Source: a virus
Taxonomy: Duplodnaviria > Heunggongvirae > Uroviricota > Caudoviricetes
Virus record (IMG/VR): IMGVR_UViG_2681813271_000015
Length of the DNA stretch: 6,934 bases
Reading direction: 5' to 3' (one strand)
Positions 3,297 through 6,934 of the stretch are shown here, one piece after another. Each line of letters opens with the position of its first letter. The first letter of the stretch is position 1. Both the position numbers and the translations under genes were made by a program. Under the pieces are notes generated by a model. That model searched no databases. It worked only from the letters and a program-made list of their open reading frames with translations, and was not told the DNA's origin.

Positions 3297-3568
3297 GTAT
3301 TCGTATTGAAATTGGCGAACGTTATGTCGTTACCAGTGACAGCTTCCAGTTTATTCTCCACGAGAAAAAGAGAGCGGAAAGCGGTAAAAACGCCGGTCAG
3401 GAATGGCTGGCGGTGGTTGGTTATTACCCGAAATTAAGCCAGCTCGTTTCCGGCCTGATGCATCACGATATTCTGACCGGAAGCGCAAAGTCTTTTGCTG
3501 ATTTAAACGCGCAGGTTGAGCAACTCAGCAAGCGTTGTTCAGAGGCTTTTGGCTCATATGGCCGTTAA
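3293..3568 (+). CDS. Hypothetical early protein (position of P2 orf83)
   Basis: ATG 3293-3295 overlaps the preceding stop TGA 3294-3296 (ATGA coupling); GGAG at 3282-3285. 91 aa; stop TAA at 3566-3568 overlaps the A start. Confidence 0.7.
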   Translation: MSIRIEIGERYVVTSDSFQFILHEKKRAESGKNAGQEWLAVVGYYPKLSQLVSGLMHHDILTGSAKSFADLNAQVEQLSKRCSEAFGSYGR

Positions 3569-5855
3569 AGCCTCCGGGCGTTTTGTCCCTCCGTCAGCAT
3601 TTGCTGCAGGCACCGGTAAGGCGTTTACCGGTGCTTATGCATGGAACGCGCCACGCGAGGCTGTCGGGCGCGAAAGACCCCTTACACGTGACGAGATGCG
3701 TCAGGTGCAAGGTGTTTTATCCACGATTAACCGCCTGCCTTACTTTTTGCGCTCGCTGTTTACGTCACGCTATGACTACATCCGGCGCAATAAAAGCCCG
3801 GTGCACGGGTTTTATTTCCTCACATCCACTTTTCAGCGTCGTTTATGGCCGCGCATTGAGCGTGTGAATCAGCGCCATGAAATGAACACCGACGCGTCGA
3901 TGCTGTTTCTGGCTGAGCGTGACCACTATGCGCGCCTGCCGGGAATGAATGACAAGGAGCTGAAAAAGTTTGCCGCCCGTATCTCATCGCAGCTTTTCAT
4001 GATGTATGAGGAACTCAGCGATGCCTGGGTGGATGCGCATGGCGAAAAAGAATCGCTGTTTACGGATGAGGCGCAGGCTCACCTCTATGGTCATGTTGCT
4101 GGCGCTGCACGTGCTTTCAATATTTCCCCTCTCTACTGGAAAAAATACCGTAAAGGACAGATGACCACGAGGCAGGCATATTCTGCCATTGCCCGTCTGT
4201 TTAACGATGAGTGGTGGATTAGTCAGCTTAAAGGCCAGCGTATGCGCTGGCATGAGGCGTTACTGATTGCTGTCGGGGAGGTCAATAAAGACCGTTCTCC
4301 TTATGCCAGTAAACATGCCATTCGTGATGTGCGTGCACGCCGCCAGGCAAATCTGGAATTTCTTAAATCGTGTGATCTCGAAAACAGGGAAACAGGCGAG
4401 CGCATCGACCTTATCAGTAAGGTGATGGGCAGTATTTCTAATCCTGAAATTCGCCGGATGGAGCTGATGAACACCATTGCCGGTATTGAGCGTTACGCCG
4501 CCGCAGAAGGTGATGTGGGGATGTTTATCACGCTGACCGCGCCGTCAAAGTATCACCCGACACGTCAGGTTGGAAAAGGCGAAAGTAAAACCGTCCAGCT
4601 AAATCACGGCTGGAACGATGAGGCATTTAATCCAAAGGATGCGCAGCGTTATCTCTGCCGTATCTGGAGCCTGATGCGCACGGCATTCAAGGATAATGAT
4701 TTACAGGTCTACGGTTTGCGAGTCGTCGAGCCACACCACGACGGAACGCCGCACTGGCATATGATGCTTTTTTGTAATCCACGCCAGCGTAACCAGATTA
4801 TCGAAATCATGCGTCGCTACGCGCTCAAAGAGGATGGCGACGAAAGAGGAGCTGCGCGAAACCGTTTTCAGGCAAAACATCTTAATCGGGGCGGTGCTGC
4901 GGGGTATATCGCGAAATACATCTCAAAAAATATCGACGGCTATGCACTGGATGGGCAGCTCGATAACGATAGCGGCAGACCGCTGAAAGATACTGCCGCG
5001 GCTGTTACCGCATGGGCGTCAACGTGGCGCATTCCGCAATTTAAAACGGTTGGCCTGCCGACAATGGGGGCTTACCGTGAACTACGCAAATTGCCTCGCG
5101 GCGTCAGCATTGCTGATGAGTTTGACGAGCGCGTCGAGGCTGCACGCGCCGCCGCAGACAGTGGTGATTTTGCGCTGTATATCAGCGCGCAGGGTGGGGC
5201 AAATGTCCCGCGCGATTGTCAGACTGTCAGGGTCGCCCGTAGTCCGTCGGATGAAGTTAACGAGTACGAGGAAGAAGTCGAGAGAGTGGTCGGCATTTAC
5301 GCGCCGCATCTCGGCGCGCGTCATATTCATATCACCAGAACGACGGACTGGCGCATTGTTCCGAAAGTGCCGGTCGTTGAGCCTTTGACTTTAAAAAGCG
5401 GCATCGCCGCGCCTCGGAGTCCTGTCAATAACTGTGGAAAGCTCACTGGTGGTGATACTTCGTTACCGGCTCCCACACCTTCTGAGCACGCCGCAGCAGT
5501 GCTTAATCTGGTAGATGACGGTGTTATCGAATGGAATGACCCGGAGGTTGTGAGGGCGCTCAGAGGTGCATTAAAACACGGACTGAGAAGACCAAACCGT
5601 CAGCAAAGAAACGGAAGCCCGTTAAAACCGCATGAAATAGCGCCATCGGCCAGACTGACCCGGTCGGAACGAATGCAAATTACCCGTATCCGCGTTGACC
5701 TTGCTCAGAACGGTATCAGGCCGCAGCGATGGGAGCTTGAGGTGCTGGCGCGTGGGGCAACCGTAAATTATGACGGGAAAAAATTCACTTACCCGCTCGC
5801 TGATGAGTGGTCGGGATTCTCAACAGTATTAGAGTCAAACTCAGTGAAGCGTTAA
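3558..5855 (+). CDS. A: Rolling-circle replication initiator protein A (HUH endonuclease, P2 A-like)
   Basis: Long ORF with an HUH metal-binding motif (TPHWHMMLF; codons CAC-TGG-CAT at 4752-4760) and two tyrosines spaced four residues apart (GYIAKYISKNIDGY; Tyr codons at 4905-4907 and 4917-4919), the paired-tyrosine arrangement known for P2 A and phiX174 gpA. Start set at ATG 3558 (MAVKASGRF..., 765 aa), close to the about 761 aa I recall for P2 A; the ORF track starts at 3516 (779 aa). Stop TAA at 5853-5855. Confidence 0.92.
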   Translation: MAVKASGRFVPPSAFAAGTGKAFTGAYAWNAPREAVGRERPLTRDEMRQVQGVLSTINRLPYFLRSLFTSRYDYIRRNKSPVHGFYFLTSTFQRRLWPRIERVNQRHEMNTDASMLFLAERDHYARLPGMNDKELKKFAARISSQLFMMYEELSDAWVDAHGEKESLFTDEAQAHLYGHVAGAARAFNISPLYWKKYRKGQMTTRQAYSAIARLFNDEWWISQLKGQRMRWHEALLIAVGEVNKDRSPYASKHAIRDVRARRQANLEFLKSCDLENRETGERIDLISKVMGSISNPEIRRMELMNTIAGIERYAAAEGDVGMFITLTAPSKYHPTRQVGKGESKTVQLNHGWNDEAFNPKDAQRYLCRIWSLMRTAFKDNDLQVYGLRVVEPHHDGTPHWHMMLFCNPRQRNQIIEIMRRYALKEDGDERGAARNRFQAKHLNRGGAAGYIAKYISKNIDGYALDGQLDNDSGRPLKDTAAAVTAWASTWRIPQFKTVGLPTMGAYRELRKLPRGVSIADEFDERVEAARAAADSGDFALYISAQGGANVPRDCQTVRVARSPSDEVNEYEEEVERVVGIYAPHLGARHIHITRTTDWRIVPKVPVVEPLTLKSGIAAPRSPVNNCGKLTGGDTSLPAPTPSEHAAAVLNLVDDGVIEWNDPEVVRALRGALKHGLRRPNRQQRNGSPLKPHEIAPSARLTRSERMQITRIRVDLAQNGIRPQRWELEVLARGATVNYDGKKFTYPLADEWSGFSTVLESNSVKR

Positions 5856-5941
5856 CTCAATAAATATGAGTTTATAAGTTAGGCCTCGAGATTTTGTAGA
5901 AAGGGATGTATACTGAGTATCGTATAGATTTGGAGTGAGTG
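5856..5941 (+). promoter_or_regulatory. AT-rich intergenic region upstream of the methyltransferase gene; candidate promoter and RBS
   Basis: 86-bp AT-rich spacer with several -10-like hexamers (TATACT 5909-5914, TATAGA 5923-5928) and a -35-like TTGTAG (5894-5899), but no pair at canonical 16-18 bp spacing. SD GGAG at 5932-5935 lies 6 nt before ATG 5942. Confidence 0.3.
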
Positions 5942-6934
5942 ATGACTGTAAAGGTGATAGACCTTTTTTGTGGTGCTGGCGGATTAACTCATGGTTTGCA
6001 GCTTGCGGGGCTTGATGTCGTTGCAGGCATTGACCTTGAGGGGGAATGTAGGTTTCCCTATGAAAGAAACAATAAATCTAAGTTTATTGAGCAAGATATC
6101 GCTAAAGTAACAAAAGAGGAACTGCTGAGGCTTTATGGTGATGCGTCTGTAAAAGTATTGGCAGGATGCGCACCTTGCCAACCTTTTTCAAAATATACTC
6201 AAGGAAAAGATAAGGCTGATGATAAAAAATGGCCTCTTCTTTATGAGTTCGAACGTTTAATTCGCGAAGTATCTCCAGAAATCGTAACAATGGAGAACGT
6301 TCCTGATGTAACTAAACATAAAGTTTATAATGATTTTTATAATTCATTGTTAAAGTTGGGCTATTATGTTTGGGCGTCTAAGATTGATTGTGTCGAATAT
6401 GGAATCCCACAAAACCGTTCCCGTCATGTATTGTTGGCCTCAAAATTGGGGGCGATTGAGTTAGTAAAACGTGACGATGTTATTTTGAAAACAGTTAGAG
6501 ATGCAATAGGAAATCTTCCTCCATTAGAAGATGGCCAAACAGATCCAAATGATATATTACATAGAGCCAGTAAATTAAATCCGATTAATAAAAAAAGAAT
6601 TATACACTCTGTTCCTGGTGGTACATGGAAGGACTGGCCGAAAGAGTTGGTTGCCGCTTGTCATATGAAATCCAGCGGTAAAGGGTATGCTAGTGTATAT
6701 GGGCGCATGTCTTGGGATAAGCCAAGTCCAACAATTACAACTCTTTGTTATGGTTTCGGGAATGGGCGTTTTGGACATCCANNNNNNNNNNNNNNNNNNN
6801 NNNNNNNNGGACATCCAGAACAGCATAGAGCGATTTCTCTTAGAGAGGCTGCTTTATTGCAAACTTTCCCGATGGATTATATTTTTGTAGAAGACAAAAA
6901 CAAGTTTGTTATAAGAAGTATTGGGAAAATGATA
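5942..6934 (+). CDS. DNA (cytosine-5)-methyltransferase, 3'-partial (continues beyond the window); not in supplied ORF track
   Basis: Read directly from the frame starting at 5942: MTVKVIDLFCGAGGLTHG... gives motif I FxGxGG (5966-5983), motif IV PCQ with catalytic Cys codon TGC at 6176-6178, motif VI ENV (6293-6301), motif VIII QNRSR (6410-6424), a ...RMSWDKPSPTITT block, and after the N gap motif X ...RAISLREAALLQTFPMDYIF (6827-6883). No in-frame stop to the window end (331 codons). The frame is preserved across the 27-N gap only if the gap length is real. Confidence 0.88.
   Translation, partial: MTVKVIDLFCGAGGLTHGLQLAGLDVVAGIDLEGECRFPYERNNKSKFIEQDIAKVTKEELLRLYGDASVKVLAGCAPCQPFSKYTQGKDKADDKKWPLLYEFERLIREVSPEIVTMENVPDVTKHKVYNDFYNSLLKLGYYVWASKIDCVEYGIPQNRSRHVLLASKLGAIELVKRDDVILKTVRDAIGNLPPLEDGQTDPNDILHRASKLNPINKKRIIHSVPGGTWKDWPKELVAACHMKSSGKGYASVYGRMSWDKPSPTITTLCYGFGNGRFGHPXXXXXXXXXGHPEQHRAISLREAALLQTFPMDYIFVEDKNKFVIRSIGKMI
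6782..6808. other. Masked/unknown sequence (27 N) inside the methyltransferase gene
   Basis: N run seen directly; flanked on both sides by the identical 9-mer GGACATCCA (6773-6781 and 6809-6817). Confidence 1.

Follow-up and report, generated by a model that had tools for sequence, protein, structure and literature searches.

A neighbourhood in which a HEPN protein of the MAE_28990 type, a ParB-like (DUF262) protein and a DNA methylase are encoded together was listed in 2013 by Anantharaman, Makarova, Burroughs, Koonin and Aravind (Biol Direct 8:15, Table 1; PMC3710099). A literature search for this triad found no paper that provides it with a name, a phenotype, a target site, a mechanism or an experimental test. 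The pair of a DUF262 and a HEPN protein is known as PD-T4-2 (Vassallo et al. 2022; ECOR65) and protects Escherichia coli K-12 from T4 (PMC9519451). Its two genes occupy about 1.5 kb, and the 1.8-kb clone contains no methylase and leaves no room for one (PMC9519451, Table S2). Several of the new systems in that study came from P2-like prophages, in which the interval from gpA to the portal gene constitutes a defence hotspot (PMC9519451). In their account of P2/P4 hotspots, Rousset et al. do not refer to DUF262 or to a methylase in the main text.

In SspE and DndI, the NTPase of the DUF262 domain is stimulated by the phosphorothioate mark of the linked modification genes (PMC11662687). In Menshen (NsnABC), NsnA, with its ParB-DUF262 and DNA-binding parts, is the predicted sensor; some Menshen operons neighbour methylases, and ParB-DUF262 domains in such a position have been suggested to target, perhaps, non-modified genomes (PMC12065111). 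In DISARM, the role of DrmMII is the marking of self with 5mC, and the DrmMII of the class 1 DISARM in Serratia sp. SCBI methylates MTCGAK (bioRxiv 10.1101/2021.12.28.474362).

The locus described here was encountered at the edge of a 6,934-nucleotide stretch of DNA, which was analysed as a whole and is called the window in the following. In its gene content it corresponds to the left arm of a P2-like prophage, one of Shigella/E. coli. It begins with an integrase gene on the minus strand (1-1011) and a run of N (1049-1334), and between this run and gene A lie cox, a gpB-like gene, DUF2732, DUF5405, a TraR-type zinc finger gene and a second DUF5405 gene. The P2 replication gene A (3558..5855, plus strand; 765 aa; 53% GC; PF05840 Phage_GPA, E=2e-123) forms the left border of the cargo hotspot. 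Shigella sonnei 53G (HE616528.1; L007) is 99.98% identical to the window over 5,447 bases, and the counterpart of gene A is located there at 5617-7914. The prophage adjoins cpxP. A megablast search with the window against the INPHARED phage collection gave zero matches, and only prophage copies of the element are known.

An earlier note on this DNA had placed a C5-cytosine (m5C) methyltransferase at the opening of the slot directly after gene A, and this assignment holds. Gene A ends at 5855 and is followed by an intergenic leader of 86 bp (5856..5941, plus strand) with a Shine-Dalgarno motif GGAG at 5932-5935, after which a reading frame starts with ATG at 5942-5944 and stays open through the last base of the window (6934). 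At the local GC content of 38.7%, i.e., a stop probability of 0.073 per codon, 319 open codons are expected by chance with a probability of about 3e-11. A promoter scan of the 53G sequence found a weak sigma-70-like site in the leader (TCGAGA-17-TATACT at 5886-5914; 7945-7973 in 53G), and the number of sigma-70-like sites upstream of the methylase is not above the shuffled expectation. The gene is indeed missing from the ORF track of the window, because this list omits ORFs that run off an end; it is absent from that track only and not unannotated, as had also been claimed, since RefSeq carries it as 'DNA cytosine methyltransferase'.

The Pfam check that the earlier note had proposed returned a match of the translation to PF00145 over residues 4-317 (E=2.2e-51; 175.6 bits, cut-off 22), and the NCBIfam model TIGR00675 'dcm' is likewise matched (128.7 bits, cut-off 100.65). 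Codons 1-280 (5942..6781, plus strand) were identified by translation, by PF00145 and by 100% identity to a 340-aa 'DNA cytosine methyltransferase [Shigella sonnei]' (P0001), which is found on 754 contigs. Among the motifs I, IV, VI, VIII and X, all of which had been reported as readable, the first four are in place on the plus strand: the AdoMet-binding motif I, FCGAGG, begins with F9 (5966-5983), motif IV, PCQPFS, contains the catalytic Cys79 (P78-C79-Q-P-F; 6173-6190), motif VI is ENV (E118-N-V; 6293-6301) and motif VIII is QNRSR (Q157-N-R-S-R; 6410-6424). The target-recognition region covers roughly codons 165-283. Motif X lies beyond the edge, and what can be read instead is motif IX, RAISLREAALLQTFP, at 6827-6871 within codons 281-319 (6818..6934, plus strand), where the gene is cut by the end of the window. 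The key residues of motifs I, IV, VI, VIII and IX are invariant in an alignment of 14 family members (A1). The part beyond the right edge consists of the last 21 codons, GNAVPVELGKAIGQSIKNHLE, with motif X GNAVP among them, and the stop codon. Full-length relatives end with ...IGKMIGNAVPVELGKAIGQSIKNHLE, and GNAVP is present in P0001 and in the loci L001, L002 and L007.

A run of 27 N (6782-6808) interrupts the gene in frame and has a copy of the 9-bp sequence GGACATCCA on both sides, the second copy at 6809-6817. Both S. sonnei 53G and E. coli JNE120442 (L001) are continuous across this position, and window position 6781 aligns with 8840 of 53G while 6809 aligns with 8832, i.e., with an overlap of 9 bp. 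This comparison identifies the N run as an artefact of assembly or masking, and the segment 6782..6817 does not represent real sequence. With the 27 N and one of the two repeat copies taken out, the 319 aa of the translation agree with P0001 (residues 1-319) at 100% identity, and consequently there is neither a frameshift nor a stop and the gene is intact. The possibility of a pseudogene, which the earlier note had raised for this gap, was rejected on the grounds of the continuous relatives and the identity of the collapsed protein to a full-length one. The suggested length of roughly 330+ aa was about right for the complete protein, the true length being 340 aa, and too high for the window, which holds 319 real codons (331 when the artefact is counted).

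By all these features the gene is a real, intact, single-domain and active-looking C5-cytosine DNA methyltransferase of 340 aa, and as such it is ordinary and already annotated. Among solved structures, the best match of its N-terminal half is M.HaeIII (7.8e-22) and that of its C-terminal half (residues 210-338) DNMT1 (about 2e-20). An RNA methylase of the DNMT2 type was considered and rejected: DNMT2/tRNA methylases are the weakest PDB matches (about 1e-8 to 1e-9, compared to 1e-20 to 1e-22 for DNA methylases), and the pairing of the family with the DNA-directed DISARM (see below) likewise argues against an RNA substrate. The protein parallels the compact type II m5C methyltransferases M.HaeIII and M.HhaI in its size, its single domain and the order of motifs I-X; it differs from them in the C-terminal half, which is nearer to DNMT1, and, no recognisable classical restriction endonuclease adjoins it. 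A search of the methylome literature for a target site found nothing for S. sonnei.

The genes that follow the methylase are visible in S. sonnei 53G, where the methylase occupies 8001-9023 (plus strand) and is succeeded on the opposite strand by genes for a HEPN_MAE_28990 protein of 226 aa (9053-9733) and a GmrSD_N/DUF262 protein of 380 aa (9735-10877). The spacer between methylase and HEPN gene measures 29 bp and contains a GC hairpin between the two convergent stop codons, and the stop codon of the DUF262 gene and the start codon of the HEPN gene are one base apart. Each of the eight places shown for the identical protein has both partners next to the methylase; the portal gene Q comes next in five of them, whereas L005, L006 and L009 continue with only IS elements or prophage remnants. 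The same three genes are annotated by RefSeq in E. coli. From the near-identity of the 53G genome and the agreement of all eight places we infer that the partners lie just past the right edge of the window. The earlier note had left open whether the methylase is an orphan or the modification half of a system with partners in this position, and the latter reading is now supported. Of the kinds of partners that it had expected, viz. a restriction endonuclease, a Vsr-like nuclease, an ATPase or a helicase, none was recognised in classical form. Its downstream check, carried out on 53G, shows the partners between methylase and portal gene.

The three genes have a GC content of about 31-43%, compared to 50-58% in the prophage backbone and flanks, and this shared low GC points to one acquired unit. 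The cassette, with its foreign GC, is inserted between gpA and the portal gene (the latter in 53G), as cargo of the P2 hotspot. The block of three genes is furthermore retained in decayed, IS-riddled prophages (L005, L006, L008, L009).

The HEPN protein matches PF18737 (3.2e-29) and, less well, PF18735 (8.4e-9), and its Rx4H site (R174-x4-H179) is intact and conserved, as are YNLxES and GNxD. No PADLOC model was matched even at E<=10, and a search of its profile against PDB sequences found nothing meaningful. The components are exactly those of the neighbourhood listed in 2013, namely a PF18737 HEPN protein with Rx4H, a ParB-like DUF262 protein and a methylase: a MAE_28990-family HEPN protein with the Rx4-6H signature is encoded next to the methylase, and DUF262 in the operon of the HEPN gene. 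That neighbourhood is a single line in a computational table, to which the locus described here contributes its P2 hotspot context, a quantitative linkage and the ties of the methylase family with DISARM and with a HATPase-type restriction enzyme.

The DUF262 protein matches PF03235 (4.8e-26), with invariant YQR..W and DGxQR NTPase motifs. Among PADLOC models it matches NsnA over its full length (1.8e-54), which scores better than PD-T4-2_A (PDLC04027; 4.5e-35, residues 73-372); a weak match to 'REase_II' (3.1e-5) is the only sign of an adjacent restriction endonuclease, and no recognised REase domain was seen. Its profile finds only weak BrxU-type matches among PDB sequences, and a structural model (pLDDT 77) has BrxU as its closest fold, followed by CTP-binding ParB/Noc proteins. 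The C-terminal half is all-helical in this model and matches no nuclease fold, and a profile search detected no DUF1524 domain. To judge from the model, the protein looks like a sensor or NTPase, which leaves the HEPN protein as the only evident nuclease. The absence of a DUF1524 His-Me/HNH nuclease, either joined to or paired with DUF262, sets the locus apart from the type IV enzyme GmrSD. Menshen shares the full-length NsnA match, but neither the NsnB ATPase nor the NsnC inPIN-nuclease is present here, where a HEPN effector and then the portal gene follow. PD-T4-2 has the same succession of a DUF262 gene and a small HEPN gene and is the source of one of the models that the DUF262 protein matches; it differs in that its HEPN protein is filed under PF18735, whereas the present one matches no PADLOC model, PD-T4-2_B included, and in that it is a self-sufficient pair, in contrast to the adjacent methylase in 57 of 58 informative loci here. 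Membership in DISARM, Menshen, GmrSD or PD-T4-2 sensu stricto was rejected, as in each case at least one defining component fails.

We interpret the methylase as the self-marking part of a horizontally acquired three-gene defence cassette in the gpA-to-portal hotspot, with the DUF262 protein as sensor and the HEPN RNase as effector, and assign this interpretation a probability of about 0.7. The methylase would place 5mC in vivo at a specific target site in host and prophage DNA. By analogy to SspE and DndI, the DUF262 protein would read this mark, responding to either the methylated or the unmethylated state, and thereby tell self from invading DNA. It would further gate the HEPN nuclease, which would stop the infection, probably by cleavage of RNA and growth arrest. 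The analogy extends to a linked self-marking module, to a DUF262 NTPase as a possible reader that controls a nuclease (PMC11662687), and to the DGxQR NTPase motif, which is conserved in the present DUF262 protein. It ends at the mark, which is a phosphorothioate there and a predicted 5mC from a single methylase here, and at the effector, a fused DUF1524/HNH nickase there and a separate HEPN protein here. The triad is predicted to be a variant of modification-based defence, consisting of an m5C methylase, a ParB-like reader and a HEPN RNase. It is possible, and we propose this tentatively, that it even represents a distinct, unnamed class of methylation-gated abortive infection, which would follow the logic of restriction-modification, with self marked by 5mC, and in which a HEPN RNase instead of a DNase would be the executioner, a protein of ParB-like CTPase/NTPase fold the reader of 5mC, and the methylase could be exchanged for its counterpart in class 1 DISARM or in the HATPase-type enzyme. 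PD-T4-2 defends without a methylase, so a DUF262-HEPN pair needs none in principle, and this counts against our explanation. The same holds for one locus that has the pair but no methylase nearby, for the other partners of most members of the methylase family, and for the lack of any PADLOC match of the HEPN protein.

The roles of the two partners may also be distributed differently. Anantharaman et al. speak of a 'ParB nuclease' and apply a PrrC-like logic to HEPN proteins associated with restriction-modification (PMC3710099). The locus would then be a restriction-modification system in which the DUF262/ParB-like protein acts as DNase on unmethylated DNA and the HEPN protein as a PrrC-like fail-safe that is freed when a phage inhibits restriction. 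The linkage data speak for this arrangement as much as for a sensor with a HEPN effector, and the weak 'REase_II' match of the DUF262 protein could be understood as a trace of such a DNase. However, the protein lacks DUF1524/HNH, the domain that cuts DNA in GmrSD, BrxU, SspE and DndI, the helical C-terminal half of the modelled structure matches no nuclease fold, and the full-length match is to NsnA, a predicted sensor with a DNA-binding domain. We regard a DNase role of the DUF262 protein as rather unlikely.

The association of methylase and effector genes was quantified from both sides. Similarity to the HEPN protein (25-100% identity) picked 57 loci on viral contigs, among them 54 in which the contig continues. 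DUF262 is located directly upstream of HEPN in all 57, and a member of the methylase family is adjacent in all 54, in 49 convergently and in five upstream in the same direction. Four further loci on chromosomes or MAGs include three with the methylase (Brasilonema, Vibrio jasicida and one MAG), and the exception (L153, a cyanobacterial-type MAG) has the DUF262-HEPN pair with no methylase within 4 kb. In sum, the methylase family adjoins the pair, in two gene orders, in 57 of the 58 HEPN-picked loci with enough sequence, and this linkage spans Proteobacteria and cyanobacteria. Where the three proteins are compared within one set of loci, identity to the Shigella proteins amounts to 55-62% for the methylase, 36-52% for DUF262 and 20-41% for HEPN, and the target-recognition region of the methylase is as conserved as its catalytic core. 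Five loci combine an intact methylase with a broken effector gene, and none clearly shows the reverse; the numbers are small, and within this limit the asymmetry of decay fits a dependence like that in restriction-modification systems.

Orphan methylases are common in phages, and the present one might merely shield the prophage DNA from host restriction or regulate genes, next to an independent pair of the PD-T4-2 type. That PD-T4-2 works without a methylase agrees with this, as do the separate, convergent transcription of the methylase with a hairpin between the stop codons and the solitary DUF262-HEPN pair of L153. An independent methylase is, however, at odds with its adjacency in 57 of 58 loci from two phyla and in two gene orders, with the GC content that the three genes share, and with their being kept together in decayed prophages; other members of the family do not stand alone but accompany DISARM or a restriction enzyme, and only three of 80 loci lack a recognised partner. 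The linkage data make the orphan reading unlikely, and we give it only a small chance.

These 80 loci were picked by similarity to the methylase (55-86% identity) from contigs with one genome per species, and they derive from Proteobacteria, Verrucomicrobia and a cyanobacterium. HEPN is present in 16 of them, 14 of which also possess DUF262, convergently downstream. Most members of the family (64 of 80) have partners other than HEPN. Class 1 DISARM genes occur in about 45 loci, usually with Vsr; PADLOC recovers DrmD and DrmMI at E=0 each and DrmB at 2.8e-79. About 13 loci encode a HATPase_c_3 protein that matches a PADLOC type II REase model (2.4e-94). The linkage is near-obligate from the side of the effector and facultative from the side of the methylase, a pattern that fits a self-marking module at the service of more than one set of effectors, and the family behaves as such a swappable module, shared by the triad, class 1 DISARM and the HATPase-type restriction enzyme. 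Triad-linked methylases were not found to be monophyletic; a neighbour-joining tree without support values shows them as paraphyletic, with HATPase-linked ones interspersed.

The connection to DISARM is also apparent at the level of the single protein, as DrmMII of class 1 DISARM is the best PADLOC model for the present methylase (4.4e-91, full length) and family members at 55-62% identity adjoin DrmD, DrmMI and DrmB. The locus itself differs from DISARM by the absence of drmA, drmB, drmC and drmD, and the core drmA-drmB-drmC, which does accompany other members of the methylase family, was not found beside the methylase in L001, L002 or L003-L010. The MTCGAK site of the Serratia sp. SCBI DrmMII, a possible member of the same family, provides no more than a lead for the target of the present methylase.

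A third alternative would leave unexplained why the linkage to a single conserved methylase family is near-obligate. DUF262 proteins of the GmrSD/BrxU type recognise DNA with 5mC, 5hmC or glucosyl-hmC (PMC10952713), and PD-T4-2 was selected on T4, the DNA of which contains glucosyl-hmC. A DUF262-HEPN pair could attack phage DNA with modified cytosines in a type IV-like manner, like GmrSD, BrxU and perhaps PD-T4-2, with the methylase as a decoy, a regulator or an addiction element. Yet a cell that produces 5mC and at the same time harbours an effector directed against 5mC would become its own target unless the two specificities do not overlap. We consider an attack on modified phage DNA very improbable.

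The interest of the locus, under the preferred interpretation of a self-marking methylase with sensor and effector, lies in the context of the methylase and not in the routine methylase gene. With three small genes, a culturable host and natural alleles, the triad offers a simple model for the way in which the reading of a base modification by DUF262 may be converted into signalling to a HEPN RNase, and this question of modification reading likewise concerns Menshen, Dazbog and PD-T4-2. The occurrence of one methylase family in the triad, in class 1 DISARM and with a HATPase-type restriction enzyme illustrates the swapping of modules among modification-based defences and suggests that the three may have a 5mC motif in common. 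An additional 5mC methylase in S. sonnei lineages bears on the interpretation of methylomes and on DNA transfer.

Among 5,426 complete E. coli genomes, nine have the present allele, and the DUF262-HEPN pair occurs in exactly those nine; this P2-like backbone is present in about 1,225 of the 5,426. A second allele, with a methylase 71% identical to the present one, occupies the same hotspot in four genomes, and a third, with about 76% DNA identity to the second, occurs in three. An allele from Serratia (69%) is likewise inserted in the P2 hotspot, so that the triad recurs at this position in Shigella, E. coli and Serratia prophages of the P2 type. Homologues of the DUF262 protein, at about 85% identity, are reported from Klebsiella, Salmonella, Cronobacter and other Enterobacterales, and the triad as a whole is free-standing in Halomonas, Acinetobacter, Vibrio and cyanobacteria.

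The gpA-portal hotspot, i.e. the cargo slot between the P2 replication gene A (gpA) and the portal gene Q, holds divergent alleles of the whole triad of methylase, HEPN and DUF262 genes in other P2-like prophages of E. coli and Serratia (L148-L151 and the E. coli hits H52-H58). The methylases of these divergent alleles are 71% and 69% identical to the methylase of the window, and, at the DNA level, an additional E. coli allele of the triad is about 76% identical to the second (71%) allele. The presence of divergent alleles in one hotspot implies that the triad entered it more than once, filling it repeatedly, or that it diversifies in place.

The methylase-HEPN-DUF262 block is still intact inside decayed P2 remnants on S. 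sonnei and E. coli contigs with an identical methylase (L005, L006, L008 and L009). Signs of decay in this set include a truncated gpA fused beside the integrase, copies of a DDE_3-type transposase (IS) on either side, and an IS21-type insertion ahead of the terminase gene. We interpret the persistence of the intact block as suggesting that the cassette is under selection, or is addictive, after the death of the prophage.

In some relatives, additional cargo genes lie around gpA (7950-8957 and 11245-11909 in L002, the E. coli GN04592 prophage; 9124-9785 in L148). One of them, from the PAPS-reductase family, is immediately upstream of gpA; the others, a DUF3850/ASCH gene and a small ORF, occupy the interval between gpA and the methylase. 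None of the three is present in the window. The window also contains a run of 286 N (1049-1334) at a point where S. sonnei 53G (L007, 3167-3393) has 227 bp belonging to the P2 C-repressor gene, which encodes an HTH_3 protein of 97 aa. As this comparison shows that the number of N differs from the true missing length, the N runs of the window represent masking or scaffold gaps and not gaps of measured size, and the immunity repressor is largely concealed.

Methylases of the same family as that of the window, with 55-62% identity, adjoin either a class 1 DISARM system (Vsr, DrmD, DrmMI, DrmB, PLD) or a HATPase_c_3 protein of 550-680 aa, which PADLOC classes as a type II REase (L013, L021, L027, L034, L036, L047 and about 60 more genome loci). 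Triad-linked methylases are paraphyletic in an NJ tree, and most of those linked to DISARM fall into a single nested clade. Together, the differing neighbours and this tree pattern suggest that the methylase family has swapped partners repeatedly.

In the C-terminal half of the window's bacterial methylase, which includes the target-recognition region (residues 210-338 of the identical full-length protein P0001; window 6569-6934 and beyond), eukaryotic DNMT1 catalytic domains (about 2e-20) outscore the bacterial M.HaeIII and M.HhaI. This likeness may hint at a CG-containing target.

Several viral contigs (L128, L133-L136) display the order methylase, DUF262, HEPN on a single strand instead of the usual convergent layout, and where the L133 methylase would be expected to begin there is no canonical start codon. 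A single informative locus, a MAG contig from ENA with cyanobacterial-type neighbours (L153), possesses DUF262 and MAE_28990-HEPN genes without an m5C methylase within 4 kb; its methylase may be located elsewhere in the genome, or the DUF262-HEPN pair may be able to act alone.
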